The notes beneath the pieces are model-generated. The model did not search any database. It was given only the letters and a program-made list of their open reading frames with translations, and had not been told where the DNA came from. From positions 7,952-71,951 of the forward strand of contig CAIZWU010000118.1 in NCBI GenBank assembly GCA_903936775.1: DNA of 64,000 bases, written 5' to 3'. Source of the DNA: an uncultured bacterium (GTDB lineage Bacteria; Verrucomicrobiota; Verrucomicrobiia; Verrucomicrobiales; V1-33). The translations under genes and the position numbers were made by a program. Below, piece by piece: positions 34,312 to 53,189 of the stretch (position 1 is the stretch's first letter; each line of letters starts with the position of its first letter).

Positions 34312-34974
34312 TCAGGACCCAGGCAAATGGACCGTCGCCAGGATGGTGGAGCCAGGGCCGGGGCGGGTGGAGACGGGATGCGTTTCTCCGGTCTCCAGAT
34401 TGGTTACGCTGGCGGGCTGGCCGTCCCTGATGGTGACATGGATTTTGTCGGGAGGAAGGGACATGCCGCGGCCGGTGGCTTTCATGAGGGCTTCCTTGGC
34501 GGTCCAGAGGTGGAAAAAGCGGTCCACCGGGCCTTCCGCGATCCAGTCGCGTTCTGTGGGCAGGAAAAATTCCGCCGCGATCTCCAGGGCGGGAAAGGTG
34601 GGATCGATGGTTTCCAGATCCACCCCGAGGCGGCCACCCTGACAGATGCCGAGAGCGATCCATCCGCCGGTGTGGGACAGGTTGAAATCCAAGGCTGCCC
34701 CCGGCACATAAAGCCGCCCGCCGGGTTCGGCGGCGATTTCCACCGCTTCCGGACTCAGGCCGAGCACGGACCCCAGCTGCTGTCTGACCCACGCCCGGCC
34801 GCGGACCCAGCGCTGCCGGTCGCGTTCGAAGTGAAACCGTGCCGCACGGAGATGCTCGGAAGCTGACAGGATGGACCAGGCCGCCTCCCCATCGGAAGTG
34901 CCGTCGCCCTCCGTCGGCTGGACGGCGAGCAAAAGCGTTCCCGGGAGCAAGGATGAGCCTGGGAAAAGATCCAT
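34312..34974 (-). CDS. 4'-phosphopantetheinyl transferase, Sfp type
   Basis: Track ORF trimmed to ATG 34974. Motifs FNLSHTGGWIALG, GVDLE and LWTAKEALMKATG. It starts 13 nt downstream of the megasynthase stop. Confidence 0.85.
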   Translation of the reverse strand: MDLFPGSSLLPGTLLLAVQPTEGDGTSDGEAAWSILSASEHLRAARFHFERDRQRWVRGRAWVRQQLGSVLGLSPEAVEIAAEPGGRLYVPGAALDFNLSHTGGWIALGICQGGRLGVDLETIDPTFPALEIAAEFFLPTERDWIAEGPVDRFFHLWTAKEALMKATGRGMSLPPDKIHVTIRDGQPASVTNLETGETHPVSTRPGPGSTILATVHLPGS

Positions 34975-34987
34975 GGACGGGTGAAGG

Positions 34988-37900
34988 CTAGTGGAGTTGG
35001 AAGGGCCGGGCGGGCACCTTGCCTTCAAGGGCCTGGCGCAGTTGGGTGGCCAGGACGCCGGCGTTCTCCGGATCGAAGAGTTCAAGGTGATTGCCGCGGA
35101 CATCGCGGATTTGCAGCGACGCGACCGCCGTGCCCCACCCGTAGTCCGGCAGCCGTTCATACTTGTCGTTCTCGGCGGTCGAGCGCAGCAGCACCATGGA
35201 ACCGGGATACGGCCGGACTTTATAGTCCTGGATGGCATCAATGTGGGTCAGACGGACCTGGATGATCCGCAGATGGCCGGACGCGGCCGTGCCGGAATCC
35301 AACAGGGTGCGGGCTTCCGCTGCCTCGGCATCGCGGTTCAGCTTGCCTTTGAGGCCGGTGCCGATCCGCCCGCCCAGACCTTTGACCTTGCCGCTGAAAT
35401 CCTGTCCGCCCTGACGCCAGCCCGCCGCGAGTCGTTCCGTCAGGGTCAGCATGCGCACGCCCACCCCGGGATTCTCGGTGTCGAAGAGGATCAGATGTTC
35501 CGTGCTCTGGCCGGTGGCCCGGAGTTGCTGCGCCATTTCATAGGCCACCAGTCCGCCGAAGGAGTATCCGCCAATGCGATAGGGGCCCTCGGCCTGGACG
35601 GTTTGCATCAAGGTGATGAAGTGGTGGGCGGTGGCTTCCACGTTCTTCCGTGCCAGCAGCCAGTCATCATCGGTGAGGGCGGGGGACTCGAGGATGTAGA
35701 CCGGGGTTTCCGGCCCCAATCCAGGCAGCAGGGCGCGGTAAAACAGGGCCCCGCCATCGCCGCCATGGAGGAGGAAAAGCGGGGGTGCATCAAGGCCCCG
35801 TTGCAGGCAGGCGAGGGCATCGCCGGCGGGACGCAGCAGGGGATTGGCGCTGGCGTGGTCGATGGCCTCGGACAAACGGCTCAAGGTCGGCGATTTGAAA
35901 AGGGCTCCGAGCGGCAGGGTCACCGAAAAGTCCTGACGGATTTTCTGGATCAGCCGCAGGCCATTGAGCGAGGTGCCCCCGGTATCAAAGAAGTCGGTGT
36001 CGGGGCCGATATGATTGGTGCCCAGCACCTGCTGCCAGAGGCTGGCAAGGCGGATTTCGGTCGCCGTCTGTGGAGGCGTCCATTTCTTGTCAGGCGTGGC
36101 CGAAGCCTCCGGCAGAGGCAGGGCGCGGTAGTCGATCTTGCCGTTGGCGGTGACCGGGAGGGAATCCACCAGCAGGATCACGGAAGGGACCATGTATTCG
36201 GGGAGTTGCTGGCGCACCGCTTCCCGCAGGGTTTTGGGAGTGGCGGGCAGTTCCGGGCGGACCACCACCCACGCCACCAGCCTTTTGCCGGCGGCGGTTT
36301 CCCCTACGGCGGCCACACAGCATTTTTCGACCGAGAGGTGGCGGCCGAGGATGTTTTCCACCTCGCCGGGTTCGATGCGGAATCCGCGTATTTTCACCTG
36401 GGTGTCGATGCGGCCGAGGAATTCCAGCACTCCGTCCACCCGCCAGCGGACCAGGTCGCCGGTGCGATAGAGTGTCGCCTCAGGGTCTGCCGAGAAAGGA
36501 TTCCTCACAAAGGTTTTTGCGGTCAGCTCCGGACGGTTCCAGTAGCCTGGGGCCAGCCCCTCGCCCCCGGTCCACAATTCCCCCGGGACCCCGGGGGGCG
36601 CCGGCTGCCCCTCCGCATCCAGCACGTAAACCGTGGTGTGGGCGACCGGTTTGCCGATCGGAATGATGCCGCTGGCGGCGTCCTCCGGAGTCAGGGTATG
36701 GCAGCAGGTGAAGGTGGTGTTTTCGGTAGGGCCATAGCCGTTGATGATCCGGGTCTCCGGCAGGGCCGCCATGGCTTTGCGGACATGGGCGGGCGAGAGC
36801 ACATCGCCCCCGGCGAGCAGTTGCCGGAGGGACTTCAGGTCGTCCAGCCGCTCATCGACCATCATGGAAAAAAGGCCGGAAGTGAGCCAGAGGGTGGTGA
36901 CGCCATGACGCCGGATGGCGTCACCGATGGCTTCGAGGGACATTTGTCCATCAGGTAGCAGGGCGAGGCGGCCGCCATTGAGCAGCGGGCCCCACAGTTC
37001 CAAGGTGCTGGCATCGAAAGACAGGGCGGCCGCGAGCAGGAAGGTCTGCTGGTCGTCGAGCACGGCATAGTTGGTGTTCCGGACCAGCCGGACGATGCCG
37101 CGGTGGGGCACGGGATTGCCTTTGGGCAGGCCGGTGGAGCCCGAGGTATAGATCAGATAGGCGATGTCTTCCGGCCCGGTCCCCGGATTGGGGTTGCCGC
37201 GGTCCTCCCCCTGGATGGCCTCCTCCAGCAGCAGCGTCTGGATGCCGCCGGGAACGGCCGGAGCATGCCATGAATCCGTCAGGACAAGGCGGATGCCGGC
37301 GTCGCGCAGGAGGAATTCCACGCGTTCCTTTGGATAGGAAGGGTCGACCGGCACGTAGGCGGCCCCGGCTTTGAGGATTCCCAGCAGGCCGGCCACGAGC
37401 TCGAAGGATTTGCCGGCATAGACCGCAATCCGGTCTCCGCGGGCGACTCCGTTGGCAGTGAGAATGCTGGCGATCCGGTTGGCGGTGGTATTCAGGTGGC
37501 GATAAGTCCAGACGCGGTCTTCCTGGAGAATCGCGGGCTGGTCAGGGCGGACGGCGGCGATTTCCTCAAAAAGCGCCGCCGCCGTCCGGGGGGGAGGCGG
37601 AGGGCATCCTGTGTCGTTGAAAGTGGTGAGGATTTCCTCCCGCTGGGCGGCGGAAAGCAGGGGCAATTGCCGCACGGGGGTGGCCGGGGCCGCGATCATG
37701 CCTTCCAGCAAAACCTGATAGTACTGCATCCAGCGCGCCACGGTGGACGGGTGGAAAAGATGGTTCCGGTAGACGCAGAGCAGGCGGAACCCTTCGTTGG
37801 TCTGGAAGGCAAACAGGCTCAGATCAAAGCCGAGCCGGCGTTTGGCATTGAGTTGGAATTCGCCATGCAACCCTCCGCCCAGATCGAGGGGGCCGGCGGC

Positions 37901-40900
37901 GGGTTCCAGGGTGAAGGTGGTCCTGACAAAGCCTGATCTGCCGGCGGCCGTGAGGCCCGGCAACAGGTCCAGGACCTCGCCCAGGGTGCAGTCGAGGTGC
38001 TCCTGGGCGGCGAGGAACTGCTGACGGGTCAAGGCCAGCAGGGAAGTGGCGGTACTGCCTTCCGGGAGGGTGAGGCGGAGAGGCAGGAACTGCACACAAT
38101 GACCCACCAGACCAGGGTTTCCGCTGGCCGGTTGATTGGCCAGCGGCGTGCCGATCACCACATCATCCTGGCCGGTCAGGCGGCCGAGCAGACATTGCCA
38201 CGCAGTCAGGAAGGCCACGTAAGGAGTGACTTTGTTTGCCCGGCAGAAATTCCGCAGCCGTGCAGTGAGGGCGGCCGGCAGCGGTATTTCCAGGGAATCG
38301 GCATCGAGAGGAGTATCGGCCCGGCGCGGCAGATCGGCGGGCAATTCCAACGGCTGGGGCAGCGTGGCGAACTGACCGCGCCACCAGGCCCGGGCTTCTT
38401 CGAACTCACCACGGCTGGCCGCGTCCGTGCGGGTTTCGGCATACGCCGCATAGGACGGGGCCGGAGCCAATGCGGGCAGGGATTCGCCGCAGGCCGACCG
38501 GTAGAACAGGGGCAGCTCGTGCATCAGCACTCCGTAAGACCAGCCATCGCAGATGATATGGTGTGCCGTGAGGGTCAGACGGTGGCGGTCCGGGCCCAGC
38601 TTCAGCAGCAGGGCCCGCATCAAAGGGGGGCGGGCCAGATCGAAGGGAGTGAGGAACTCCCGGCGGCCGGCCTCCTCCCCCCGCCGCGAGGCCTCTTCCT
38701 CCGGGAGGCTGGAGAGATCTTCCTGCACCAGGGGCAGCGCGCCGCCGGGGCTGATCATCATTTGTCCGCCAGCGGCATCAAATCCGGTCCGCAGGGACTC
38801 ATGGCGGCGGGCCAGTTGCTGCAAGGCCGCTTCCAGGGCGGCGGGCTGCAACGGGCCGGAAAAATCCACCGTCAGCGACTCATGACACGCCAGGGAGGCC
38901 CCGGGACTCATGCGGGAAGCGAGGAACATTTCCTGCTGCGCGGGAATCAGCGGAGCGGTGACCGCTTCGGGATGCGGGAAAAAGCCACCCCGTTGGAGGG
39001 CGGAGATGCTGTCCGCGAAAGCCGTCAGGATTTCCTCCACGTCCTGCGCGGTGTGGGCGACGCTGAGGAAGCCGGGGCGTCCTTCCCAGAGGTGGATGCC
39101 GCGCAGGCGGAGGTGATAGTAGAGCAGGCCGGAGTATTTCAGGCCGGGGTCGGCATTCAGCATCCACATGCTGCTGAAGCGGGTCGATTTGAGGGGGACG
39201 CCGGTGGATTCGAAGAGGGCGTTGAGGCGGTCCACGAAGTCCCTCGTCTTGAGTTCCACCGCCTGCTGCAGGGTAGGCCCGATTTCCTTGAGTTTGAGGA
39301 GGACGGCACGGGCCGCGGCGAGGGTCAGGGGATGGCGGATGAAGGTGCCGGCGAAAAAGGTGACGCCCACTTCGGGCATGGAATCGTCGCCGTATTGCCA
39401 CGCTCCGCCATCGAGGGCATCCATGTATTTCCGCTGGCCGCAGATCACGCCCAGGGGCATGCCGCCGCCAATGATTTTGCCGTAGGCGACGAGGTCGGCC
39501 TGGATGCCGAAGTGAGCCTGCGCCCCGCCGGGGCCGGTGCGGAAACCCAGCACCACTTCATCGAAAACGAGGGCGGTGCCGGTGTCGCGGGTGATGGCGC
39601 GGAGCTTTTGGACAAAGTCGATCGGGACCACGTCCGGACGGCGGGACATCACGGGTTCCACCAGCACGCAGGCGATATCGTGGCCGTAGCGCTGCAGGAT
39701 TTCGAGGGATTCGGGATTGTCGTATTCGAGGACGAGGATACTGGCTTGCGCGAGGTCCGGAATGCCGGGCGCAATCGGGATGGAACGCAACTCGCCATTG
39801 ATGACGAGGGGACGGGCAAGGACTTCGTCGAAGATGCCGTGATACCCACCGGCGAACATGGCGATGATGTTGCGGCCGGAGATGGTGCGGCTGGTGCGGA
39901 TGGCGGCCATGAGGGCTTCCGATCCGGTATTGCAGAAGGCGACGCGTTCCTGGCCGCTGAACCCGCGGATGAGGTGGGCGACTTCGCCGGCCAGCGGTGA
40001 GGTGGGCCCGATCTCGAAGCCCAGATCGATCTGGGCGTGGAGGGCATCGGTGACGAATTTCGGACGGTGGCCGAAGAAGCCGAGGCCGAAGCCGTGGACG
40101 ACGTCGATCCAGCGGTGGCCGTCGGTGTCCCAGAGGTAGGCGCCTTCGCTGCGGTCGGTGACGGCGGGGAAGACCATGTCCTTCCACAGGAGATTGAATC
40201 CGGCGACGGCGCGGGGGTCGGCCAGGACGTCGCGGTGGTCGGCGGTGAAGGCTTTGGCTTTAGGGTATTTTGCGGTGTAAGCGGCGATGAGACCGGTGAG
40301 ATGCGCCTGCTGGAGGGGCGTGAGGCTGCCGTCCTTGGCGCGCTCAATGGGCTTGAAGGGGCCGAAGGCGATCTTCCTGCCGTCGCTGCCTTTGAGTGTT
40401 TTGACGGGGACGGTGTAGGCAGAGGCGGTGGGGCTGGAAGAAAAGGCACCGGGCTGGAGGCTGGTGCGGAGGGCGCTGATTTGTTGTTCAATAACAGCGA
40501 GGCGATCGGCGGTGGAGCCGGTGGCCGGGGTGGCGGAAAGCCCGGCCGCAGGGGGGCTGTTTTGAAGTGCTGGGGCAGGAGTGGCAGGCGGAAATTTGTC
40601 AGAGGGAAGTTGGGCGTCCAGCCAGGTGGCAAGATCGGCGATGCTGGCCTGGTCTTCCATCAGTTGGCGGAAGGTGATCTTGAGACCAAAGTGTTTTTTG
40701 AGGGAGTTGGAGGCGGAAGTCAGGAACAGGGAGTCGAAACCGAGGTCGAGGAAGGGCGTGGCGGGGTCGGCGGTGGCGGTGTCGATGCCGGAAATTTGGT
40801 GGAGTTGGGTGCGGAGTTCTTCAACAAGATGGGCATGGCGTGAAACGGCTGCGCTGATGGGAGCTTCCGAAACCAGGACCTCGGGAATTCCGGCGGCAGT

Positions 40901-43642: not shown

Positions 43643-43700
43643 GGGGAAAAGGACAAGATGGGCGGAAAGGCCGGAAGGGCTGAGGGGCTGAGGGGCGTGG

Positions 43701-46700
43701 TTAACGGCGGGCGGCGGCGGCCCGTTGGGCAGCGGCGCGGGCGGCGGCAGCGCGGGATGGGATGTCGTGGGCGGGCGGGGTGCCGGCCGGGGAGGGTGCC
43801 GGGGAAAGCCAGGCCGCAAGGGTGGCGATAGTGGGGTATTGGAAGAGGGCGGTGATGGGAAGGGGGCGGGCAAGTTCCTGACTGGTGGCGGCATGGACGC
43901 GGAGCATCAGAAGGGAGTGGCCGCCGAGGTCGAAGAAGTTGTCCATGGTGCTGATGCTGGTCAGGCCGAAGGCGCGCTGCCAGATGGCGGCGAGGCGTTG
44001 CTCCATGGGGGTGGACGGGGATTTGAAATTTGAAGTTTCAAGTTTGGGAGCGGCCGCGGGGGGAGAACACTGGGGGGGAAGCGGCAAGGCGGCGAGGTGT
44101 TGTGAGAGCGGTGCCCCGGGGTGGGTGGCGAAAGATTGAAGGAGGGTGGTGAAGGAAGCCACGATCTGCCGGGCGCGGGGGGCGGAGCAGGCGGCTTCCT
44201 GATAAACGAGGAGAAGATCCCAGGAGGCAGCGGAAGGGGTGACAACCACGGTGAGGGGGAAGTTGGTGTGGATGGGGCCGTCGAAATCTGAGAGGGTGGT
44301 CCGGGAGCCGAGTTGGGTGAGGGTCCCGTCGATTTGATAGTTCTGGAAGACGAGGAGGCTCTCAAAGAGGCGGAACCGCCACGGGACCGCGGAGCAGTCC
44401 TGGATGCGCGGGAGCGGGGTGGACTGGTGGGCGGCGAGATCGGTGAGGTGGTGGTGGACGCTGCGGAGGAAGTCGCTGGCGGGGAGGGCAGGATCGATTT
44501 TCGAGCGGACGGGGAGGTTATTGACGAAAGGTCCGGGGATGCGGTCGGCCCCGGGGAGGTCAGCCGGACGGCCGGAGAACGCCGAGCCGTGGACGACATC
44601 CTGGCTGCCGGCGGCGTGGGAGAGCAGGGCGGCCCAGGCGGCCTGGACGAGGACGCCGGGCGTGAGGCCGAGGCCGCGCGCGGCAGCCGTCAGGGAGGCG
44701 GAGGTTTCCGGGGAAAGGGTGGCGCGGGCTTCGGCCGTGCGCCGGGAAGTGCGGGGTCCGGGGAGGGCCTCGACCGGAATGGGGGTAGGAGCTTCAATCC
44801 CGGCCAGGGTGGCTTGCCAGAAGGGGTCGGAGCTGGCTTCGGGTTGGCGCTCCAGCCAAGCGAGGTAGTCACGGTAGGGCTGCGGGGACGGGAGGCCGGG
44901 GTTCCCTCCGGAGGTTAGCGCACGGTAGGTGGCAGCGGCTTCCGCGAAGACGACAGGCCAGGACCAGCCGTCAAGTTGGAGGCCGGGGACAGACCAGCAG
45001 AAGAAGTGATCCTCCGGGGAGAGGCGCATCAGGGTGAAACGGCCACAGGGCGCCTTGGTGAGGTCGTTGACGAGGGAGGCGTCCGAAGTGAGGAAATGAG
45101 TGATGCAGCCGGGACCACTGGATTCAAGGAAGTTGAATTCCGGGACCGCGGTGCGGTGCACCATCATGACGGCGTGCGGCAGGCCGGCACTGTGGAAGGT
45201 GGAGCGCAGGATGGTATGGCGTTGGACCACTTGGGCCCAGGCGGCCTGGAGCGCGGAGACGTCCAGCGGTCCGCCGATGCGGCAACACCATTGATCGAAG
45301 CCGGCGTTGGGTTTGGTGAGGGCGGCATGGTGGAACAGCCGCTGCATGGGGGAGAGGCGGCAGATGTCTTCCGGGCCCGGATGGGCGGCGAGGAGGGCAT
45401 CGAGGCTGGCCTGATCCAGGTGGGCGAGGGGAAAATCGGACGGCGTGCAGCGGGGAGTGGTGATGGTCAGGCAATGACCGATGACCTGATGGAGGGCGGT
45501 GAGGAAGGCTTCGGCGAAAGCCGTGAGGCTTTCCGGGGTGTGGGCCGGGGCAGCACTGGTGAAGGTAGTTTCCAGGCGGCTACCGATGACCATGGCGTTG
45601 ATTTCGGTGGCGTGGGCGCGGGTGGCGCGGGGGCTGTGCCAGGGGCCGGTGGATTCCGGGGCAAAGGAGAAGAGGGCACTGCCGGAAGTGAGGGCGTCGA
45701 ATTGCCCCAGGTAGTTGAAGACGAGGGTGGAGGAAGCGTTTTCAGTGGCTTGCCACTGATGGCTGGCGCCGTTGTCGGGGAGGGCGCGGAGGTGTTCTTT
45801 GATGAATGGAATAGCCTGGGCGGGGTCGGTTGACGGGACGGTGAGGTGGAGGGGGAAAAGGGCGGTGAACCAACCGATGGTGCGGTCCAACGGCAGGCCG
45901 GGCGCGAGGGTCTCTTCCCGGCCGTGACCTTCCAGATGCAGGGACAGGGTGGGGGCGGATGCCGTGGCCTGATGAGCCAGCGTCAGGGCTGTCAGCAGAA
46001 GGTCGTTGATGCGGGTGCGGTAGGCGGCGGGGGCGCGGTGGAGGAGGGCGGTGGTGTTGGCCTCGTCGAGGGCGACGGTGTGGGCAAAGGTGCCGGATTC
46101 GAGTGTTAGGTCAGCTTCCGGGACGGGCTGGATGGTGGACCAGTAATGGAGGCTTGGGCGGGCTTCCGGGGTGGTGGGCCAGTGGGCGAGTTGGCGGGCC
46201 CACTGCGGCCAGGTGGCGGTGGGGGCTGGGAGCGGCTGGCCGGTCAGGAGGGACTCGAGGTCTTCCAGAAGGATACGCCAGGACACGCCGTCGATGGCGA
46301 GGTGGTGGACGGCGAGGCAGAGGCGGCCGGGGCGGTCTTCGCCCGCGTCGAAGAGGGCGGCGCGGATGATCGGGCCGGTTTGGTGGTTGAGGGTGGTCTG
46401 CAGCTGGGCGCAGTGGGATTCCAAGCCGGTGAGATCCGGATAGGTGGTGAGGAGGTGGGCGGTTTCCTCCGGGGCGATGGAAGGCGTCCAAGTGTTGTTT
46501 TCCTGATGGAATCTCAGGCGCAGCGCGGGATGGCGGGCGGTGAGTTCACGGAGGACGCGGTGAAGGCATTCGGGATCGGGGCGGTCACTGAGGGTGAAGA
46601 GGAACGATTGGTTCCAGTGGTGGGAATCAGCTAGGTTTTGAGCGAAGAACCAGCGCTGGATGGGCGTGAGGGGGAAGGGGGCGGTGAGGTCGTCCGGGGA

Positions 46701-49700
46701 TGATTGAAGACTTGAGATATGAGATTGGAGCGGGGGCGCAACGCTGGCGAGAGAGGCGATCGTGGGGTGCTCGAAGAGTTGCCGCGGGGTGAGGGCGAGG
46801 CCGGCTTCGCGGGCCCGGGCGATGACTTGGATGGAAAGGATGGAATCGCCTCCGATCTCGAAAAAGTTGTCGGTGGTGCTGACGCGGTCGAGGCGGAGGA
46901 CCGCAGACCAGATGAGGGTCAGGACTGCCTCGGAGGGGGTGACGGGGGCTTGGAACGGGCGGGTGGTGGCGGGGCCGTCAGCGGCGGGCGCGGGGAGGGC
47001 CTTGCGGTCGAGTTTTCCGTTCGGAGTGATAGGAAACTTTTCCAGGAAGACGAAAGCGGCCGGGATCATGTAGTCCGGGACGCGGGTTTTGAGGAGGGCG
47101 CGGAGCTCATCCGGGGACGGTGGGTCGGCGGGGTCGGCAGGGACGAGGTAGGCGCAGAGGCGTTTGCCGCCGGGGCAGTCTTCGCGGGCGAGAACGGTGG
47201 CTTCCTCGACCGCGGGATGGGAAGTCAGGATATTTTCGATTTCACCCAGCTCGATGCGGAAGCCGCGGATTTTGACCTGGTGGTCGATGCGGCCGAGGTA
47301 TTCGATGTCGGGACTGGCGGCCCCGGGAATGAAGCGGGCTAGGTCGCCGGTTTTGTAGAGCCGCCCGTGGCCGGTCAGGTGGTTGGGGAGGAAACGGTCG
47401 GCGGTCAGTTCATCCCTCCGGAGGTAGCCGGTGGCGAGGCCAGCTCCGCCGACATACATCTCGCCGGGAACGCCGATGGGGACCGGTTGGCCATTGCCAG
47501 GATCGAGGATGTAGAGCTGGAGATCCGGGATGGGGATGCCGATGACGGAGCCACTCTCCAAATCCCGGGAGGACAGGGGGCGGTAGGTGACATGGACCGT
47601 CGTCTCCGTGATCCCATACATGTTGACGAGAACCGGGGCGGTGTCGCCGTGCCGGTCGAACCATGGTTTGAGGCTCTGCATTTCGAGGGCTTCGCCCCCG
47701 AAGATCACGTAGCGGAGGGACTGGGCCGGGAGGCCAGGATGGGTGGCGCGGGCGCGGGGTCCGGCCTGGATGAGTTGGCGGAAGGCGCTGGGGGTTTGGT
47801 TGAGGACGGTGACTTGTTCCTGACAGAGGAGGGCAAAGAACTCGTCAGGGCTGCGGCTGGTGAGCCAGGGGACGACGACAAGGCGGCCTCCGAAGAGGAG
47901 GGCGCCCCAGAGTTCCCAGACGCTGAAATCGAAGGCGGTGGAGTGGAAAAGGGTCCAAACGTCGTTTTCGTTGAAGCCATACCAGGGGTCGGTGGCTTTC
48001 ATGAGGCGGACCACGTTGCGGTGGGTGATCTGGCAGCCTTTGGGGAGGCCGGTGGAGCCGCTGGTGTATATGATGTAGGCCAGCGAGTCCGGGTCGGTGG
48101 GGATCCGGGATTTGAGATTTGAAATTTGAGAGGAAGCCGCGAAACCGATGTCTTCGATGAAGAGGGTAGTGGCGGGGTTTCCGGGGATTTTGGAGGCGAG
48201 GGGGCGCTCGGTCAGGAGGACGGGGGCCCGGGCGTCCTCCAGCATGAAGGCGAGGCGCGCGGGCGGGTAGGCGAGGTCGATCGGAAGGTAGGCGGCGCCG
48301 GCTTTGAGGATGCCGAGCAGTGACGCGATGAGCGGGGCGCGGCGGTCCATGCAGAGGCCGACGAAGTCACCAGGCTTGACGCCGGCGGTGATGAGAGCCT
48401 GGGCGACGAGGGTGGAGCGGCGGTCGAGTTCCGCGTAGGTCCAGGTGGCGTCTTCGGCGGTGACGGCGGTGCGGTTGGGATATTGCGCGGCGGTTTGGCT
48501 GAACCAGCCGTGGAGGGTGGTGTCCGAGTCAACCTGGGGGTCGGTGGGTTGCCAGTCCTGGAGGAGGAATTGGCGTTCGGCCGGAGTGATGAGGTGGAAC
48601 TTGGAAAGCGCGGTGGTCAGAGGGAGGGTGGCGAATTGCTCAAGGAGCTGGGCCATGTGGCCGAGGAGGCGTTGGATGGTTTCGTGGTCGAAGGTGGCGG
48701 GCTGATAGGCGCAATGGAGGCGGAGGGCGTGGGAGCCGTAAACGGCCAGGGTGAGGGGGACGCTGGTGAGTTCGTGGAGCTCGAAGGTGCGGTGGGCAAA
48801 GGCCGGTCCGCCGGTGGCGCGGAGCGTGTTGGTGTAGTCGTCGTTTTCGAAGACTAGGAGGTGGTTGAATGGAACCTGGGTGGCGCTGAGGCCGCAACTG
48901 CGGCGGATGAAGGAAAGCGGGGTCTGCTCGTGGGGACGGAGGTCGAGCCAGTGCTGGCGGAGCGACTGGAGGAGCGTGAGGAGGGGTTGGTTGGAGGGAA
49001 GATCGGCTTTGAGGGGGAGGGTGTTGATGAGGAGGCCGATGGTATTTTCCGAGTCCGGCACGGGAGTGTGGCGGCAGGCGCGGGTGGCTCCGAAAATGAT
49101 ACGGTCTTCCCCGGCGTAACGGCCCAGCAGGAGCGCGAAGGCCGCTTGGACAAAAGTATTTAACGTGAAGCCATGGGTGGCGGCGAGGTGGCGCAGGGTG
49201 GCAGTCAGGGAAGCGGGAAAGTGGAGATCGGCTTCTGCCTGGGGGGAGCGGGAGGAAACAGAATCAGCCGCGCCTGCAGGACTGGGACGGTGATTGGCGA
49301 TGGGCCTGATGACGTGATCGACGATCAGGGGGGTGGGGCCGGTGATGCCGCTGAGGTGGGACTGCCAGAAAGGAATGGAGGGCGTGTGGTCGAGCGAGGC
49401 TTGCCAGCGATTGTGGGATTGGAAGGACGGGCGGGATGGAGGGGGTTCCTGTGAGGGAATGTCGTAGCGGGAGAAGACTTCCTGGAGCAGGGCGGTGATG
49501 GCCCTGCCGTCGATCAGAATGTGATGGAACGTCCAGATGAGATGGTAATGCTCTGGCGACTGGCGGATAAGGGTGAGGCGTTGCAGGGGGCCTGCGGTCA
49601 GGTGAAGAGGGGTGGTGCGGTCATTTTCGAGGAAAGCGGCGACATCTGAGGAGTCCAGTTCTTGCCAGGGAACGGGGAGGGTATCGTGGACGGTGGCGGC

Positions 49701-49916
49701 TTCGGCGGTGAAGGTGGTGCGGAGAATGGGGTGGGCCGCGGCGAGGGCTTCCCATGCGGCGCGGAGGCGGGGGGCCTCAATGCTTTCCGGGAGGGTGCAG
49801 ACCATTTGCTCGACGTCGATCCCTGCGGCCGGGTCCTGGAGCCACGTAAAGTACATGCCCTGCTGCAGCGGGGTCAGCGGCAGGGGTGTTTCAGGCGCAG
49901 GCAGGGGGGCGCTCAT
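43701..49916 (-). CDS. non-ribosomal peptide synthetase: C-A(Thr)-T-E-C*-T
   Basis: 2071 aa. Approximate domains follow. C 48582-49889 (HHILIDG). A 46992-48524 (AYIIYTSGSTGLPKG, FDFSVWE, NMYGITETTVH, PNGKLD; hand-read code DFWNIGMVHK). T 46737-46949 (FFEIGGDS). E 45417-46685 (PLTPIQRWFF, HHLAIDG). C* 44082-45374 (all core motifs present except that HHxxxDG reads PGLQLDG at 44967-44987). T 43797-44015 (FFDLGGHS). Confidence 0.95.
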   Translation of the reverse strand: MSAPLPAPETPLPLTPLQQGMYFTWLQDPAAGIDVEQMVCTLPESIEAPRLRAAWEALAAAHPILRTTFTAEAATVHDTLPVPWQELDSSDVAAFLENDRTTPLHLTAGPLQRLTLIRQSPEHYHLIWTFHHILIDGRAITALLQEVFSRYDIPSQEPPPSRPSFQSHNRWQASLDHTPSIPFWQSHLSGITGPTPLIVDHVIRPIANHRPSPAGAADSVSSRSPQAEADLHFPASLTATLRHLAATHGFTLNTFVQAAFALLLGRYAGEDRIIFGATRACRHTPVPDSENTIGLLINTLPLKADLPSNQPLLTLLQSLRQHWLDLRPHEQTPLSFIRRSCGLSATQVPFNHLLVFENDDYTNTLRATGGPAFAHRTFELHELTSVPLTLAVYGSHALRLHCAYQPATFDHETIQRLLGHMAQLLEQFATLPLTTALSKFHLITPAERQFLLQDWQPTDPQVDSDTTLHGWFSQTAAQYPNRTAVTAEDATWTYAELDRRSTLVAQALITAGVKPGDFVGLCMDRRAPLIASLLGILKAGAAYLPIDLAYPPARLAFMLEDARAPVLLTERPLASKIPGNPATTLFIEDIGFAASSQISNLKSRIPTDPDSLAYIIYTSGSTGLPKGCQITHRNVVRLMKATDPWYGFNENDVWTLFHSTAFDFSVWELWGALLFGGRLVVVPWLTSRSPDEFFALLCQEQVTVLNQTPSAFRQLIQAGPRARATHPGLPAQSLRYVIFGGEALEMQSLKPWFDRHGDTAPVLVNMYGITETTVHVTYRPLSSRDLESGSVIGIPIPDLQLYILDPGNGQPVPIGVPGEMYVGGAGLATGYLRRDELTADRFLPNHLTGHGRLYKTGDLARFIPGAASPDIEYLGRIDHQVKIRGFRIELGEIENILTSHPAVEEATVLAREDCPGGKRLCAYLVPADPADPPSPDELRALLKTRVPDYMIPAAFVFLEKFPITPNGKLDRKALPAPAADGPATTRPFQAPVTPSEAVLTLIWSAVLRLDRVSTTDNFFEIGGDSILSIQVIARAREAGLALTPRQLFEHPTIASLASVAPPLQSHISSLQSSPDDLTAPFPLTPIQRWFFAQNLADSHHWNQSFLFTLSDRPDPECLHRVLRELTARHPALRLRFHQENNTWTPSIAPEETAHLLTTYPDLTGLESHCAQLQTTLNHQTGPIIRAALFDAGEDRPGRLCLAVHHLAIDGVSWRILLEDLESLLTGQPLPAPTATWPQWARQLAHWPTTPEARPSLHYWSTIQPVPEADLTLESGTFAHTVALDEANTTALLHRAPAAYRTRINDLLLTALTLAHQATASAPTLSLHLEGHGREETLAPGLPLDRTIGWFTALFPLHLTVPSTDPAQAIPFIKEHLRALPDNGASHQWQATENASSTLVFNYLGQFDALTSGSALFSFAPESTGPWHSPRATRAHATEINAMVIGSRLETTFTSAAPAHTPESLTAFAEAFLTALHQVIGHCLTITTPRCTPSDFPLAHLDQASLDALLAAHPGPEDICRLSPMQRLFHHAALTKPNAGFDQWCCRIGGPLDVSALQAAWAQVVQRHTILRSTFHSAGLPHAVMMVHRTAVPEFNFLESSGPGCITHFLTSDASLVNDLTKAPCGRFTLMRLSPEDHFFCWSVPGLQLDGWSWPVVFAEAAATYRALTSGGNPGLPSPQPYRDYLAWLERQPEASSDPFWQATLAGIEAPTPIPVEALPGPRTSRRTAEARATLSPETSASLTAAARGLGLTPGVLVQAAWAALLSHAAGSQDVVHGSAFSGRPADLPGADRIPGPFVNNLPVRSKIDPALPASDFLRSVHHHLTDLAAHQSTPLPRIQDCSAVPWRFRLFESLLVFQNYQIDGTLTQLGSRTTLSDFDGPIHTNFPLTVVVTPSAASWDLLLVYQEAACSAPRARQIVASFTTLLQSFATHPGAPLSQHLAALPLPPQCSPPAAAPKLETSNFKSPSTPMEQRLAAIWQRAFGLTSISTMDNFFDLGGHSLLMLRVHAATSQELARPLPITALFQYPTIATLAAWLSPAPSPAGTPPAHDIPSRAAAARAAAQRAAAARR
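44017..44049. repeat. tandem-heptamer tract, copy 3 (ATTTGAA ATTTGAA GTTTCAA GTTTGGG), in the C*-T linker
   Basis: Plus strand ggggATTTGAAATTTGAAGTTTCAAGTTTGGGa. It encodes PKLETSNFKSP. Confidence 0.7.
46703..46730. repeat. degenerate tandem-heptamer tract, copy 2 (ATTGAAG ACTTGAG ATATGAG ATTGGAG), in the T-E linker
   Basis: It is preceded by gggg, like the other copies, and encodes LQSHISSLQS. Confidence 0.55.
48106..48134. repeat. AT-rich tandem-heptamer tract, copy 1 (ATTTGAG ATTTGAA ATTTGAG), inside the NRPS A domain
   Basis: Plus strand cgggATTTGAGATTTGAAATTTGAGagga. It encodes SSQISNLKSR in the variable loop before the AYIIYTSGSTG core motif. Confidence 0.8.
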
Positions 49917-50698
49917 GCGGGGAAGAGATCGGTGCGGCGGTCGCGCAAGGCAGGGAATTGAGCGCGCCAGGCAGCGGTGGTTTCGGCGGAAATGGTGGTG
50001 CGGAGGAGGGTGGGGGCGGAACCCGCTTCGGTGACGACTTCACCGTGGGGATCGATGATGGCGCTGGCTCCGGCGTAGTGGAAATGGGGGTCGGAACCGC
50101 AGCGGTTGAGGCCGAGCACGAAGGCTTGGTTCTCGATGGCGCGGGCGCGGAGCAGGATGGTTTTATGCTGCTGGCGGCGGTCGGGCCAGTTGGCGATGAC
50201 GCAGAAGAGGTCGGCCCCGGCGCCGGTGGCGGCGCGGAAAAGTTCCGGGAAGCGGAGGTCGTAGCAGATGACGGGAGCGACCGTGAAGCCGTTCCACGGG
50301 AAGGTGACGATTTCCGAGCCCGCAGTGAAGGCCTGGGCTTCGCCAGCCGGGGAGAAGGAGTGGATCTTCCGGTAGCGGGCGAGGAGGGAGCCGTCGGGGG
50401 AGAAGGCGAGGGCCTCGTTGGCTCCGGTCCCGTCAGGAAGCTGCCGGGACAGGCCACCCAGGACGTAAATCCGGTGCTGGCGGGCGAGGCTGGCGAGGAA
50501 GCTTTCCGTCTCGGCGGCGGGAGTGTCGGCGGCTTGCGACACGTTCATGCTGAAGCCACTGGAGAACATTTCGGGCAGTACCAAGAGCGAGCCGGGGGCA
50601 AGGGCAGGGCGGGCGGAGTCCAGAGCCTGCGAGACGGTGGTAAAGTTCGCCGAACGGTCCTCCCAAGCGATGTCGAATTGAAGGGCACAAAGTTCCAT
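49913..50698 (-). CDS. carbon-nitrogen hydrolase, omega-amidase (YafV/Nit2)-like
   Basis: Trimmed to ATG 50698 (MELCALQFDIAWED). Nitrilase-superfamily Glu-Lys-Cys triad contexts: LVLPEMF, YRKIHSF and APVICYDLRFPE. Also ANWP and RARAIENQAFV. By eye it is collinear with E. coli YafV. Its stop overlaps the NRPS start (ATGA at 49913-49916). Confidence 0.8.
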   Translation of the reverse strand: MELCALQFDIAWEDRSANFTTVSQALDSARPALAPGSLLVLPEMFSSGFSMNVSQAADTPAAETESFLASLARQHRIYVLGGLSRQLPDGTGANEALAFSPDGSLLARYRKIHSFSPAGEAQAFTAGSEIVTFPWNGFTVAPVICYDLRFPELFRAATGAGADLFCVIANWPDRRQQHKTILLRARAIENQAFVLGLNRCGSDPHFHYAGASAIIDPHGEVVTEAGSAPTLLRTTISAETTAAWRAQFPALRDRRTDLFPA

Positions 50699-50982
50699 GG
50701 GACAAAAGGCAGTAAATTCTAAAAAATATACTGAATACAGTAAATCCAAAACACTCCATTTGCAAGAAATATTACAAACCTTAATAACCAATCAAAATTG
50801 ATCTAAACGGTTGGGCGGCCCTGCGGTTCGCGTCGGGTTCAGGGAGAAGAATGTGTCCGCGGTGAGAAAATATGGGCAGGTATAAAAAAGACGGAAAGAT
50901 TGATTATAATTCTAAAAATACTGGAAAAAACCAAAGGATCGTTTATACTTTACGGCAATTACCCGATTTATTTGCAATTTCC
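50699..50982. promoter_or_regulatory. AT-rich divergent intergenic (promoter) region between the NRPS/PKS operon and the polysaccharide-export operon
   Basis: This is the lowest-GC stretch in the neighbourhood. It lies between divergent starts at 50698 (minus) and 50983 (plus; the track allows 50872). It contains a direct repeat AATTCTAAAAA(TA)TACTG at 50715-50733 and 50908-50923. Confidence 0.45.
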
Positions 50983-52602
50983 ATGCTGTTTTATGAGCCC
51001 GAAAGCCTCCCCATCCGGAGCCTCCTGCACAAAGTCCTGTTGGGGGCGCTTTCGGCTGGGTTGATGCTGCTACGGTTGCCAGCCCAAAGTGTGCTGGTGG
51101 AGGACGATCGGGCGCCGCTGATAGTCGGTGATGATCCCGCTCCCGTGGCAGCCCCAGCCCCGGTAAATCCCCCGACCGACCCGGGCATCGGAGTCGAAGA
51201 GACTAAAAAGGCGATTCTGGGCGAGTCGGTGTTATGGGATCAAACCATTCCAACGGAGGAGTTGCGGGTGGCCAGCATCCCCGGGGAACCTGAAATCGGC
51301 GCGCTGCTCCCCTCAGGGAGTGTTGATCGCCCGGCAGGAACTCCTCCCTTGGTGGATGCGGGGGTGGGGGAGAAAAAGGCACTCCGGCCGCCGATCACGG
51401 GAAGTGCCCCTTTTGCCTCTGAGACGAAGAGTGGGAGTGGACCGGTGGTGATGGGCACGGATCTGGAGCCCAACGTGGCGGTGACAGCCCTTGCTCCGGA
51501 ACAGACGCCCCCGGAAATGCTGGACGCCCCCTTGGTGGAGTCAGCGGATCCGTGGGTTTTCCGGGTGGAGCAGATTTCGGTTTATGACGACAATATTGAG
51601 CTGAGCAACCGGGGGAAACAGGCCGATTTTGTGTTCATGCTGCGGGCCTCGGTGGCTTGGCAGCGGGGCGATCTGGAGCGCCGGCGCGGCTCGTGGGCGA
51701 GAGTCTTTTACGAAGCCACCGGTTCCGTTTTTGTGGACCGGAGCGATGAGAACAGCCTCGACCACGACCTTCAAGCCGGCGGACAGCGGCGCTGGGGGGA
51801 TCTGGCGACCGCCTTGGAAGGACGCTACCGCTACCTGAGCGGAGCCACGCCGGACCTTGGGGACCGGGTGCAGCGCCAGGAATATGAAGCCAAGCTGAGT
51901 GCCGCCTACGATCTGAGCGGGCGTACTTTTGTGGAGGCCGGGGCCGGGTGGAATGGGATCGACTACCAGGACGCCGTCTATGCTGATTTTGAGGAATGGA
52001 CGGTCGAAGGCTTTGCCGGGTATGAATTGTCAGGCCGCACGAAGCTCGCAGCGGGAGCTGCGGTTGGCCAGCTCAAGGTGAAGGGAACGGCCCCACAGGA
52101 CTACCAGCAGGCCCTCGTGAAAGTGACCCGGGCCACTACCGGGGCGCTGGGGCTGACCGGCCGGGCCGGGGCCGAGTTCCGTCAGATGGAGCGGGGAGAT
52201 GAGGTCACTCCGGTTTTTGCCCTGACAGCAGATTGGGAACCGATTGCGGATGGCACCCGGGTCACGGCAGAAGGTTTCCGCGAAACGGTCGCGTCGGGGT
52301 CGCTGGGCGGGGAAACCTATCTGCGGACCGGGGGCGCGCTGCGTATTCTACAGCAGCTGGGCAACCGGTTGGCGGTTGGGTTCGAGACGGGTTATGAACA
52401 GTTGGCCTACACGGAAATTTCCGATGGGGCGGGGGCGGGACGCACTGACGATTATTTCTTTGCCCGGCCCAGTTTGAAATATGAATTCAATGCCCGCCGC
52501 CGGGCGGAGCTGTTCTATCATTTCCGTGAGGACGAATCCACCTCGGATGACTTTAGTTTTACGGCCAACCAGTGGGGCCTGTCCTTCGGCCTCGATTTCT
52601 GA
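50983..52602 (+). CDS. outer-membrane beta-barrel protein associated with the polysaccharide export locus
   Basis: Start uncertain: 50872 in the track; ATG 50983 gives signal-like LLHKVLLGALSAGLMLLRLPAQS. The C-terminal half has alternating-hydrophobic beta-strand patterning, and the terminus FGLDF ends in Phe, as in OM beta-barrels. Confidence 0.5.
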   Translation: MLFYEPESLPIRSLLHKVLLGALSAGLMLLRLPAQSVLVEDDRAPLIVGDDPAPVAAPAPVNPPTDPGIGVEETKKAILGESVLWDQTIPTEELRVASIPGEPEIGALLPSGSVDRPAGTPPLVDAGVGEKKALRPPITGSAPFASETKSGSGPVVMGTDLEPNVAVTALAPEQTPPEMLDAPLVESADPWVFRVEQISVYDDNIELSNRGKQADFVFMLRASVAWQRGDLERRRGSWARVFYEATGSVFVDRSDENSLDHDLQAGGQRRWGDLATALEGRYRYLSGATPDLGDRVQRQEYEAKLSAAYDLSGRTFVEAGAGWNGIDYQDAVYADFEEWTVEGFAGYELSGRTKLAAGAAVGQLKVKGTAPQDYQQALVKVTRATTGALGLTGRAGAEFRQMERGDEVTPVFALTADWEPIADGTRVTAEGFRETVASGSLGGETYLRTGGALRILQQLGNRLAVGFETGYEQLAYTEISDGAGAGRTDDYFFARPSLKYEFNARRRAELFYHFREDESTSDDFSFTANQWGLSFGLDF

Positions 52603-52607
52603 AACCC

Positions 52608-53189
52608 ATGAGCCTGACGTTCCGCCAATTTCTCCTCACTGCTGCGTGGACCGCCGGGGTGCTCGGAACTGCCATGCCACGGGCGACCGCCCAGGCGGCT
52701 GCGTCCGGCGGGCGGCTGGGCCCAGGGGATGCGGTGGAAATCCGGGTCTTCCGGCACGATGATCTGGGCGGAAAATTCACCCTGGGATCCGACGGGGCGG
52801 TCGTGCTGCAGTTCATCGGCCGGGTGACTCTCGGCGGACTGAGCCCGGAGCAGGCGCGGCTGCGGATTGAGTCCCTTCTCGCCGATGGTTGGCTGCGCAA
52901 GCCGCAGGTGACCGTGAACGTGGCCGAATTCGCCAAAAATACCATCACCGTGACCGGGCAGGTGAACCGTGGCGGCGCCTTCAATGTCGCCCGGAACAAA
53001 CCTTTCACGGTTTCCCAGGCCATCGGGATGGCGGGTGGATTCAACACCCGGGCCAATCCCAAGGCGGTGATTCTGCAGAGGGACAACAAACCCTACACCA
53101 TCAACGTCAAGGCCATCCAGCAAGACCCTTCACGGGATATTCCGCTGAAGGACGGGGATGTGCTGGTGGTGAGGGAATCCCGGCTCTAA
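52608..53189 (+). CDS. polysaccharide export protein (Wza-like; Poly_export plus SLBB)
   Basis: Trimmed to ATG 52608. Has a signal peptide, the PGD motif (LGPGDAVEIRVF), GSDGAVVLQFIGRVTLGGLS and an SLBB-like C-terminus DGDVLVV. Confidence 0.85.
   Translation: MSLTFRQFLLTAAWTAGVLGTAMPRATAQAAASGGRLGPGDAVEIRVFRHDDLGGKFTLGSDGAVVLQFIGRVTLGGLSPEQARLRIESLLADGWLRKPQVTVNVAEFAKNTITVTGQVNRGGAFNVARNKPFTVSQAIGMAGGFNTRANPKAVILQRDNKPYTINVKAIQQDPSRDIPLKDGDVLVVRESRL

Follow-up and report, generated by a model that had tools for sequence, protein, structure and literature searches.

The 64,000-nt window, meaning the whole stretch of DNA that was analysed, carries four co-directional genes on the minus strand between positions 34312 and 50698: nit (49913-50698; 261 aa, ATG at 50698), encoding a carbon-nitrogen hydrolase; an NRPS gene (43701-49916; 2071 aa); a hybrid PKS-NRPS gene (34988-43642; 2884 aa, ATG at 43642); and a phosphopantetheinyl transferase (PPTase) gene (34312-34974; 220 aa). 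By their ORF coordinates, the nit stop and the NRPS start overlap in ATGA and the remaining gaps measure 58 nt and 13 nt. Translation reading and searches with Pfam and NCBIfam found the genes, domains and catalytic motifs intact, except for the C2 motif described below, and, judged from its sequence, the locus is a real, intact four-gene peptide/polyketide assembly-line operon in a Verrucomicrobiota genome. The nearest genome loci belong to Verrucomicrobiota MAGs, in line with the PVC-group host that had been suggested, and in the genome scan locus L006 is 91% identical to the window over the C2-T2 unit described below. Matches to promoters and terminators for the operon were at chance level only.

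Domain content of the assembly line

Pfam detected three Condensation, one AMP-binding and two PP-binding domains in the NRPS protein, and ketoacyl-synt, Acyl_transf_1, PP-binding, Aminotran_3, Condensation, AMP-binding, PP-binding and Thioesterase in the hybrid protein. All of the domains below lie on the minus strand. The N-terminal condensation domain, C1 (48561..49883; Pfam Condensation), is DCL-like, retains an intact HHILIDG motif and shares 31% identity with C2. Its best PDB matches were the McyB N-terminal C domain (9e-51), PvdL, BacC E-C and TycB, which we take to be C domains downstream of an E domain, and the starter domain RzmA (7c1h) matched at only about 1e-10. C1 therefore looks in sequence like the D-donor (DCL) domains, not the lipo-initiation starter domains, and this leaves the optional acyl cap proposed in the initial annotation without support. 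The adenylation domain A1 (47013..48503; Pfam AMP-binding and AMP-binding_C) has the Thr code DFWNIGMVHK and is followed by the carrier T1 (46746..46922; Pfam PP-binding; Ser1025 in IGGDSI) and by an epimerisation domain, E (45417..46694; motifs HHLAIDGVS, EGHGRE and FNYLGQFD), with PDB matches to the E domains of TycA and GrsA.

The hybrid protein opens with a KS (42209..43591; Pfam ketoacyl-synt and Ketoacyl-synt_C) whose active-site Cys, His and His are intact in TACSTS, HGTAT and NTGH. Its best PDB match was 8xjy, 'Polyketide synthase' (724 bits), an entry family that also includes a 'Peptide synthetase' chain, and CurL ranked second. The AT (41168..42019; Pfam Acyl_transf_1) contains GHSIGE plus HAFH, the malonyl-CoA signature, and the ACP (40613..40825) has Ser971 in LGFDSL; a query derived from this ACP matches the same position in family loci. 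The PLP-dependent amine transferase, AMT (38987..40360; Pfam Aminotran_3 E=6e-41), carries its PLP lysine, Lys1389, in YGKIIGGG, and among solved structures it is most similar to the MycA AMT (6kfm; 443 bits, E=6.6e-132, full length), compared with about 175 bits for GSA aminomutases in the same PDB search. A further condensation domain, C3 (37628..38959; Pfam Condensation E=1e-76; HHIICDG), the adenylation domain A2 (36137..37570; Pfam AMP-binding; Val-type code DALWLGGTFK), the carrier T3 (35861..36052; Pfam PP-binding; Ser2558 in GGTSL) and a TE (35033..35782; Pfam Thioesterase E=1.5e-17; GYSFG) complete the line. The Sfp/HetI-type PPTase (34312..34974; Pfam ACPS and AASDHPPT_N) contains the motif WTAKEALMK and scores 93 bits against the NCBIfam HetI model, under the model cutoff.

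These results bear out most of what the initial annotation had read from the letters: the four minus-strand frames with their overlap and gaps were exact, and the HMM check that it had proposed recovered its domains in the order given. The malonyl-type AT and the MycA-type AMT likewise stand, Pfam matched no KR, DH or ER domain in the operon, and the hand-read codes of A1 and A2 are identical to those obtained by aligning 120 A domains from the cluster family.

The cluster family and its A-less C2-T2 unit

One genome scan recovered relatives of C2-T2 in 357 species-level genomes. Architecture was examined in the best 80 of these 357 loci, where the order C-A-T-E-C-T / KS-AT-ACP-AMT-C-A-T-TE recurs across phyla, in Verrucomicrobiota, Acidobacteriota, Gemmatimonadota, Pirellulaceae, Nitrospira, Methylomirabilota, Proteobacteria and Thermoleophilia; it is also present on metagenome contigs. 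The cluster in the window is one copy of a large family of nearly fixed architecture, found in at least eight phyla and hundreds of uncultured bacteria, and this NRPS-PKS family has apparently been without study so far. The domain order had been reported as unrecognised, which holds in that no characterised pathway sharing it was found in the open-access literature, but it is widespread (357 genomes) and not an idiosyncrasy of this locus. Similarly, the operon was said to contain no tailoring gene; a JmjC/Cupin_8 tailoring gene is indeed absent from the window but is common in other loci of the family.

The most unusual part of the line lies at the end of the NRPS protein. C2 (44067..45365; labelled C* in the initial annotation) has a condensation fold and is DCL-like, but reads WSVPGLQLDGWS at the HHxxxDG site in translation, with PGLQLDG (codons at 44967-44987) as the replacement and both catalytic histidines lost. 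Its best PDB matches are McyB-C (3e-53) and PvdL-C, and C2 is also recognisably related to the AmbE C* structure 7r9x (1e-18). Pfam found no A domain after C2, leaving the carrier T2 (43797..44003; second Pfam PP-binding stretch; Ser2001 in LGGHSL) without a cognate A domain. The protein ends in an Ala/Arg-rich tail (43704..43796), into which the near-invariant R536, A537, Q540 and A543 of alignment A1 fall, and which probably mediates docking to the KS protein.

A neighbour-joining tree placed the His-less forms of C2 in one single large clade, and the sole fixed difference from the HH clade was H-to-P at residue 1644; both clades conserve 43 residues, including DGWSWP, at 95% or more. Some members of the HH clade bear an extra histidine (HHHLxIDG). 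Median identity of family loci to the window ranged from 33 to 65% per domain (C2 45%, E 43%, C3 37%), which argues for selection on the whole line; on this comparison C2, conserved about as well as E, is under clear constraint and not decaying. The exact A1 code was found in 49 of 66 family loci, with a predicted specificity for Thr in 57 and Ser in 8, and A2 is represented by at least seven different codes. This constancy of Thr or Ser at A1 (65/66 loci) while A2 varies suggests that a beta-hydroxy residue is needed.

Several characterised systems share parts of this organisation. The block KS-AT-ACP-AMT-C-A-T is common to the window and MycA (mycosubtilin/iturin synthetases of Bacillus), whose AMT is the close homologue noted above and aminates the beta-keto group on the carrier before NRPS condensation. 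In MycA, a fatty-acyl ligase and an ACP provide the priming, and the long beta-amino fatty acid that results goes into a cyclic heptapeptide, whereas the KS in the window is fed by an NRPS (Thr, E and A-less C-T) and only one further amino acid is added, with the TE directly after. McyE/NdaF, of the microcystin and nodularin synthetases, also have a PKS module with in-line AMT followed by C-A-T, at a PKS-to-NRPS junction; their modules extend a long polyketide (Adda) and include further domains, and no Thr-E-C-T unit precedes them as it precedes the PKS module here. The N-acyl-D-Asn prodrug starts of ClbN-ClbB and XcnA (colibactin, xenocoumacin) similarly run C-A-T-E, then a DCL-type C and later a KS. 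The window differs from them in its lack of a ClbP-type peptidase, in a C1 that is not starter-like, in a DCL domain (C2) that has neither A domain nor histidines and, across the family, in an A1 for Thr or Ser instead of Asn. In AmbE, from the AMB pathway of Pseudomonas aeruginosa (A-T1-C*-T2-TE), one A domain loads T2 as well as another carrier (PMC4357302), which sets a precedent for a T2 that follows a modified C domain and has no A domain of its own. As in AmbE, a modified C domain here separates two carriers, the second without its own A domain; the differences are that C2, by the E-values given above, resembles ordinary DCL domains far more than it does C* of AmbE, that an E domain lies ahead of it, and that T2 passes to a PKS and not to a TE.

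Proposed pathway and alternative explanations

The explanation towards which we lean, with modest confidence, is an NRPS-PKS-NRPS line with a working C2-T2, an AMT assisted by nit, and a small product. As read from the domains, the Sfp-type PPTase could prime the four carrier domains, A1 would choose Thr and E could invert it; the cis-AT module, whose AT is of the malonyl type and which lacks reductive domains, would yield a beta-keto thioester, whose keto group the MycA-type AMT is placed to turn into a beta-amine; C3-A2-T3 would then attach a Val-type residue, and the TE would free the chain. Other steps are more conjectural. The A-less C2-T2 would be a functional part of the line and no relic, with T2 most likely charged by A1, by analogy with T2 of AmbE, or alternatively taking over the D-Thr unit passed on by T1; in both cases, C2 would act on a beta-hydroxy residue through a chemistry that no longer needs the catalytic histidines. 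The expected product would be a small molecule of three or four units, containing a D-Thr-derived gamma-amino acid with an added beta-amine, amide-linked to Val. Among the features that count against this explanation, no donor for C1 is encoded, despite its intact histidines and DCL-like sequence, and the loss of both histidines in C2 is normally read as lost condensation activity, in which case charging of T2 by A1 would yield no dipeptide in the His-less clade.

That same loss, together with a T2 served by no A domain, would also be consistent with C2-T2 as a silent or skipped remnant, D-Thr or acyl-D-Thr going directly from T1 to the KS to give D-Thr, a C2 beta-amino unit and Val. This was the implicit model of the initial annotation, and we consider it unlikely: across phyla, C2 equals E in conservation and exceeds C1, C3 and TE; the His-less forms compose an old clade of many species, which shares the 43 near-invariant residues with the HH clade; and the T2 serine is retained, with the docking tail after T2 and not after T1. 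No locus showing both sides of the junction lacked C2-T2, although the loci were found with a C2-T2 probe and cannot reveal its loss elsewhere. The product sketch of the initial annotation skips a unit that, under such constraint, should not be left aside. Somewhat less doubtful is a C2 of modifying type, akin to the CmodAA or NocB-C5 condensation domains, so that the Thr/Ser side chain is dehydrated or otherwise transformed and a dehydrobutyrine-type or cyclised unit enters the KS. The nearly constant beta-hydroxy amino acid upstream, beside a drifting last residue, would fit this chemistry, as would the relationship to AmbE C*, presumably a solved CmodAA domain, and the extra histidine in part of the HH clade, a motif that we take to be that of the beta-lactam-forming NocB C5 domain. 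However, ordinary DCL domains and not AmbE match C2 best, the extra histidine is not conserved family-wide, and the dehydrating C domains so far known to us keep their histidines.

The contribution of nit is a separate question. This gene (49913..50698; Pfam CN_hydrolase E=5e-40) encodes a hydrolase of the Nit2/YafV (omega-amidase) type with the Glu, Lys and Cys triad motifs LPEMF, RKIH and ICYD; its PDB neighbours include mouse Nit2 (2w1v) and yeast YLR351C (1f89), presumably Nit3, and JGI names its homologues omega-amidase. A passage in PMC3870968, citing Aron 2005, gives glutamine as the amine donor of MycA. Since the AMT is MycA-like, its nitrogen may also come from glutamine, and the translationally coupled amidase would then hydrolyse the 2-oxoglutaramate co-product, pulling transamination forward. 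This would resemble the glutaminase II route, in which a Nit2/YafV omega-amidase with a similar triad is paired with a glutamine transaminase, except that the transaminase here, whose closest characterised relative uses glutamine, is a megasynthase domain; the open-access literature yielded no example of these two enzymes paired in a biosynthetic cluster. It is possible, if less probable than this role, that nit lies outside the pathway as a general omega-amidase or amidohydrolase, or acts on the product, for example by amide hydrolysis. In other Verrucomicrobia, orthologues with 52-55% identity lie in unrelated gene contexts, nit is missing from most family members, which also counts against our favoured explanation, and the best NCBIfam model, PRK10438 ('amidohydrolase', which we take to be E. 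coli YafV), is matched at 165.8 bits, under its 249-bit cutoff; nit may be a housekeeping omega-amidase that just happens to sit upstream. Against this, seven loci of one clade, in which NRPS identity falls as low as about 40-50%, have nit next to the NRPS gene, four of the seven (among them L006, L009 and L013) preserve the ATGA overlap, and an unusual codon-3 C excess is common to nit, the NRPS gene and the first half of the hybrid gene. Its listing as a cluster gene therefore holds for one Verrucomicrobial clade only. We also regard as improbable that the cluster makes a known compound class and that the family has been described under another name. Protein-database matches were all 977 aa or shorter, so that characterised megasynthases could not surface, and the literature covered was that of open-access texts; but no matching cluster was found there, the best 80 of the 357 loci are all from MAGs or assemblies of uncultured organisms, and the known AMT-containing lines (iturins, microcystin, puwainaphycin and zeamine) have a different upstream logic.

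Exopolysaccharide neighbourhood

Divergently transcribed from the operon, on the plus strand at 50872..56971, are exopolysaccharide genes for an outer-membrane protein, a Wzc-type chain-length determinant/tyrosine kinase and a polyprenyl glycosylphosphotransferase, with NCBIfam matches to TIGR03016 and EpsL (weak), TIGR01007 (148 bits) and TIGR03025 (395 bits). The same three genes flank L006, L009, L010, L013, L032 and L048, and exopolysaccharide genes lie beside at least 28 of the 49 loci with at least 3 kb of visible flank, as a raw count; other loci have as neighbours a TonB receptor, a TRAP transporter, a Sel1 protein or a DUF1501 protein. The polysaccharide-export genes that the initial annotation saw in the flanks are thus present, but as a recurrent neighbour of the family and not as mere background. 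Although this is the weakest point of our explanation, the repeated position of the family inside or beside exopolysaccharide loci suggests that its product probably has a role at the cell surface or in the biofilm matrix, and does not act solely as a diffusible antibiotic.

The operon in the window

Our Pfam analysis revealed a real and intact operon of four minus-strand genes, located where the initial annotation had placed them and with exactly the spacing it had described (a 4-nt ATGA overlap, a 58-nt gap and a 13-nt gap). These genes encode a C-N hydrolase, nit (49913-50698; 261 aa; CN_hydrolase), an NRPS ordered C1-A1-T1-E-C2-T2 (43701-49916; 2071 aa; Condensation x3, AMP-binding, PP-binding x2), a hybrid protein (34988-43642; 2884 aa) and a PPTase (34312-34974; 220 aa; ACPS and AASDHPPT_N). 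The Pfam order in the hybrid is ketoacyl-synt, Acyl_transf_1, PP-binding, Aminotran_3, Condensation, AMP-binding, PP-binding and Thioesterase, that is, KS-AT-ACP-AMT-C3-A2-T3-TE, where AMT denotes the amine transferase domain. Domain content and order were thus as first read from the DNA, as was the absence of reductive domains, none of which was matched by Pfam, and the adenylation codes DFWNIGMVHK (A1) and DALWLGGTFK (A2) came out identical when 120 A domains of the family were aligned.

The A3 (SGSTGLPK), A7 (Y[KR]TGD) and A8 (GRID.QVK) motifs were found in A1 and A2 alike; together with HHILIDG in C1, HHIICDG in C3 and all four carrier serines (4/4), they identify NRPS elongation modules (C-A-T). 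The Cys-His-His residues of the KS, the malonyl signature already reported for the AT (GHSIGE plus HAFH) and the DSL motif of the ACP mark a cis-AT type I PKS module, for which the best solved KS-AT match was a PKS (8xjy/8xjz) whose deposition also holds a peptide synthetase chain; CurL came next. The epimerization domain carries HHLAIDGVS, EGHGRE and VFNYLGQFD, with the E domains of TycA and GrsA as structural matches, and the TE carries GYSFG. With both lobes matched and WTAKEALMK at the W/FxxKEA site, the PPTase is Sfp-type; its score against the HetI equivalog model (93 bits) fell short of the cutoff of 370. A promoter and terminator scan gave chance-level matches, with the exception of one promoter-like site immediately before the nit ATG. 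Housekeeping genes elsewhere in the window include metK (2126-3361, minus strand; 551 bits) and an RlmB-type 23S rRNA methyltransferase (5926-6510, plus strand).

An orphan family with a near-constant architecture

The cluster is a member of a large orphan family spread over at least eight phyla. One scan of 185,579 species-level genomes returned 357 stretches that encode a relative of the C2-T2 part, and the best 80 of these, all from MAGs or assemblies of uncultured organisms, belong to Verrucomicrobiota, Acidobacteriota, Gemmatimonadota, Pirellulaceae, Nitrospira, Methylomirabilota, Beta- and Gammaproteobacteria, and Thermoleophilia. Domain maps of these loci (L-numbers below), for which the domains of the window served as queries against six-frame translations, showed the order C-A-T-E-C-T, KS-AT-ACP-AMT-C-A-T-TE wherever the contig was long enough, except at L083 and L084, which are unrelated, larger NRPSs. 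Homologous C2-T2 fragments were also abundant in metagenomes, about half with a VP-type and half with a THH-type motif, and the whole architecture was present on long contigs of a Pirellulaceae MAG, a Solirubrobacterales MAG and an unassigned contig in which the genes are ordered differently. An exact look-up of the 2071-aa NRPS returned no record, and a protein homology search, whose index appears not to reach megasynthases, gave no match longer than 977 aa, though one Verrucomicrobiota genome locus (L006) is 91% identical to the window over C2-T2. Given that identity, the window almost certainly comes from a verrucomicrobium. We found no description of this cluster family in the literature; MIBiG and BiG-FAM lay outside the comparison, and a known product is therefore possible.

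The first A domain has a Thr code in 57 of the 66 loci and a Ser code in 8, whereas the codes of the last A domain range over Thr, Val-type, Ser, Gly, Ile-like, Ala, Asn and others; because of this, the line needs a beta-hydroxy amino acid first and tolerates many residues last. Third-codon-position GC skew on the coding strand was about -0.55 to -0.7 (C-rich) in nit, the NRPS and KS-AT-ACP-AMT, and -0.03 to -0.3 from the AMT/C3 boundary through the TE and PPTase, with the change point at about 39000-39300. This shift suggests a different history for the terminal C-A-T-TE module (and the PPTase), in agreement with a swapped terminal module and in line with the variable last code.

A C-5 cytosine DNA methyltransferase gene (28871-30082, plus strand; Pfam E=9e-89) shows the same codon-3 C excess as the NRPS (-0.5), which most other window genes do not share; its neighbors gave no family matches. 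The 525-aa ORF at 30156-31733 (minus strand), in GC-rich DNA, is probably spurious, with a Gly/Arg-rich translation and no family match, and the true genes may be those opposite it at 30183-31016 and 31041-31709.

At the start of the chain, about 14 loci form a sub-form in which an extra N-terminal carrier domain precedes a first C domain of LCL type (HHI[IV]SDG), which stands in place of the DCL-like C1 (L011, L014, L019, L020, L024, L026, L027, L033, L034, L044, L066 and L085, with L015 and L037); at L015, C1 is even preceded by a T-E pair. These loci showed no loading enzyme for the extra carrier. Accessory genes also varied: the PPTase was seen in about 30 loci, and a Cupin_8/JmjC gene in about 26 (L001/L053, L003, L004/L070, L012, L016 and some 20 more), and in about one-third of loci such an oxygenase gene immediately precedes or follows the megasynthase genes. 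A search of the window for a JmjC/Cupin_8 gene found none, and its closest relatives likewise do not have one.

In the window, the N-terminal C1 retains its histidines and is 31% identical to C2. Its top PDB matches were the McyB N-terminal C domain (9e-51), the PvdL C domain, BacC E-C, TycB and SrfA-C, which we take to be C domains located after E; by this closest similarity, both C1 and C2 resemble DCL-type domains. A starter role for C1 was unsupported, given that the RzmA starter domain (7c1h) matched at only about 1e-10. No carrier was found upstream of C1 within the window, and no donor module or acyl-activating gene adjoined the family in a conserved manner at the loci mapped by domain. 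The observations of the initial annotation were confirmed, and its interpretation was supported in part. The optional acyl cap that it allowed on the product is possible, yet without support, with C1 being DCL-like and no acyl-activating neighbor conserved.

At the PKS-to-NRPS junction the line resembles MycA or McyE, but it is not an iturin or microcystin synthetase, since neither fatty-acyl loading nor a long polyketide lies upstream. The KS is preceded by the NRPS protein instead of an acyl ligase or a loading ACP, and a single C-A-T-TE module follows the AMT, in contrast to the multi-module peptide of iturin-family synthetases. The start of the line resembles the C-A-T-E/DCL logic of N-acyl-D-Asn prodrug motifs, but uses Thr/Ser and has neither a starter-like C domain nor a ClbP-type peptidase.

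The histidine-less C2-T2 unit

C2, marked C* in the initial annotation, reads WSVPGLQLDGWS at the HHxxxDG site, where both histidines are absent, and thus departs from the canonical motif (PGLQLDG). No A domain follows it. Its closest PDB matches are DCL domains of the ordinary kind (the N-terminal C of McyB, the PvdL C domain that comes after E, BacC E-C, TycB and SrfA-C). In a neighbor-joining tree of the family, the histidine-less sequences group as a single clade within the HH-type ones, with members from Verrucomicrobiota, Acidobacteriota, Nitrospira, Pirellulaceae and Methylomirabilota. The first His is replaced by Pro in 95% of its members, with Gly, Ala, Ser, Asp, Glu or Pro at the second position, and the His-to-Pro change at residue 1644 is the sole position fixed differently between the two clades.

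On conservation and clade structure, we rejected a reading of C2 as a decayed relic. In the 26 loci that are complete, C2 has a median of 45% identity with the window's copy, against 43% for E, 38% for C1, 37% for C3 and 33% for TE, and 43 residues, DGWSWP included, are at least 95% conserved in both clades. This identity level, the single histidine-less clade and the shared conserved residues argue for C2 as a working part of the line. With one such clade and retained conservation, the histidines appear to have disappeared in a single ancient event, after which the domain was maintained, so that the retained function would either never have required them or have changed. The C2 tree is at odds with taxonomy in general; in two loci labeled Verrucomicrobiia (L019 and L027), C2 is nearly identical to that of Acidobacteriota loci (L023, L024 and L085), which indicates recent inter-phylum transfer or mis-binned contigs.

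Two models may account for the retained function. Part of the HH clade carries HHH, a motif of the beta-lactam-forming C5 domain of NocB; it is not conserved. The strict Thr/Ser requirement would allow side-chain chemistry at C2, and the domain might carry out a reaction such as dehydration on Thr or Ser. Alternatively, A1 may charge both T1 and T2, by analogy with AmbE, whose carriers T1 and T2 flank a modified C domain; T2 there has no A domain of its own and receives its residue from an A domain that loads its cognate carrier as well (PMC4357302). The T1-C*-T2 stretch of AmbE resembles the C2-T2 unit in layout only.

Transamination, exopolysaccharide context and possible roles

The amine transferase domain (Aminotran_3, E=6e-41) has Lys1389 in place and sits after the ACP and before a C domain, as expected of a MycA-type AMT. 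Its best PDB match over the full length was the solved MycA AMT (6kfm; 443 bits, E=6.6e-132), with glutamate-1-semialdehyde aminomutases well below. The product of the line is predicted to contain Thr and Val, together with an additional nitrogen introduced by the AMT. The product of nit has the CN-hydrolase fold and the Glu-Lys-Cys triad; its best NCBIfam model was PRK10438 (165.8 bits, under the cutoff of 249), which we take to be the YafV model, its nearest structures include Nit2 and Nit3, and its homologs carry the JGI label omega-amidase. Transamination from glutamine yields 2-oxoglutaramate, the substrate of omega-amidase (Nit2/YafV). Glutamine has been established as nitrogen source for the AMT of MycA alone (PMC3870968, which cites Aron et al. 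2005). Because a MycA-type AMT acting on glutamine would yield 2-oxoglutaramate, nit is predicted to be its omega-amidase partner.

The distribution of nit bears on this prediction. The gene lies directly upstream of the NRPS in seven loci (the window, L006, L009, L010, L013, L026 and L032), with the ATGA overlap in 4 of those 7, and is confined to the window's Verrucomicrobial clade; most family members do not have it. Orthologs of 52-55% identity occur in unrelated neighborhoods in other Verrucomicrobia, which weakens the view of nit as a cluster-specific paralog. We infer instead that a general omega-amidase would have been drawn into the operon in the window's clade, where it would pull on-line transamination. 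Our literature search found no report of an omega-amidase paired with such an AMT in a biosynthetic cluster.

Divergent from nit, a plus-strand trio (50872-56971) encodes an outer membrane protein (OMP) with a weak match to the PEP-CTERM-system models TIGR03016 and EpsL, a Wzc-type chain-length determinant/tyrosine kinase that matched XrtA-associated models below cutoff, and an exopolysaccharide (EPS) polyprenyl glycosylphosphotransferase. The same trio flanks L006, L009, L010, L013, L032 and L048, and in other phyla the cluster is surrounded by further polysaccharide genes, among them those for GT4 and GT2 glycosyltransferases, Wzy, a flippase, AsnB-type amidotransferases, FemAB-like acyltransferases and a polysaccharide deacetylase. 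By a deliberately insensitive seed search and two Pfam samples, at least 28 of the 49 loci with at least 3 kb of visible flank had a polysaccharide neighbor, as a raw count; some of the remaining flanked loci had unrelated neighbors. The association of the cluster with EPS genes is thus recurrent, and a functional link is possible.

An NHL-repeat gene (888-1973, plus strand) matched a ScyF-type PEP-CTERM protein model at 68.8 bits, under the cutoff, which hints at an exosortase/PEP-CTERM system in this genome. No exosortase gene was found among the window genes scanned, nor did a crude scan for C-terminal motifs detect any PEP-CTERM tail in the vicinity of the operon. The gene at 31867-34257 (plus strand), convergent with that of the PPTase, encodes a 796-aa, probably secreted or surface protein whose domains are of the choice-of-anchor D, HYDIN-like Ig and PKD types; it showed no PEP-CTERM tail.

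A joint reading of these features, to which we assign a rather low probability, is that the family makes no free antibiotic; instead, it would supply EPS or cell-surface machinery with a conserved, amine-bearing peptide-polyketide unit derived from Thr/Ser (as a substituent, anchor or primer), with the histidine-less C2-T2 performing a non-condensation step, for example carrier-to-carrier transfer or chemistry on the D-Thr side chain. We know of no description of such a step for C domains. The fixed architecture over at least eight phyla and the position inside EPS loci would be explained by such a surface unit, and the same near-constancy makes a niche antibiotic unlikely.

The main leads are the constrained C-T unit without histidines or an A domain, the need for Thr or Ser, a possible coupling of omega-amidase and AMT, and the link to EPS loci. 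The C domain, long constrained and free of both histidines, offers a clean test of how such domains function without the textbook catalytic residue, and the short line (about 16 kb and four genes, with its own PPTase) is a practical target for heterologous expression. If true, coupling an omega-amidase to a glutamine-dependent AMT would offer a way of driving on-line transamination that is both simple and transferable. To our knowledge, few natural products have been described from Verrucomicrobiota, Acidobacteriota and Gemmatimonadota, and the spread of the cluster points to a common, yet unnamed metabolite of soil and freshwater bacteria; if the EPS link is functional, thiotemplate chemistry would be tied to matrix and cell-surface biology.
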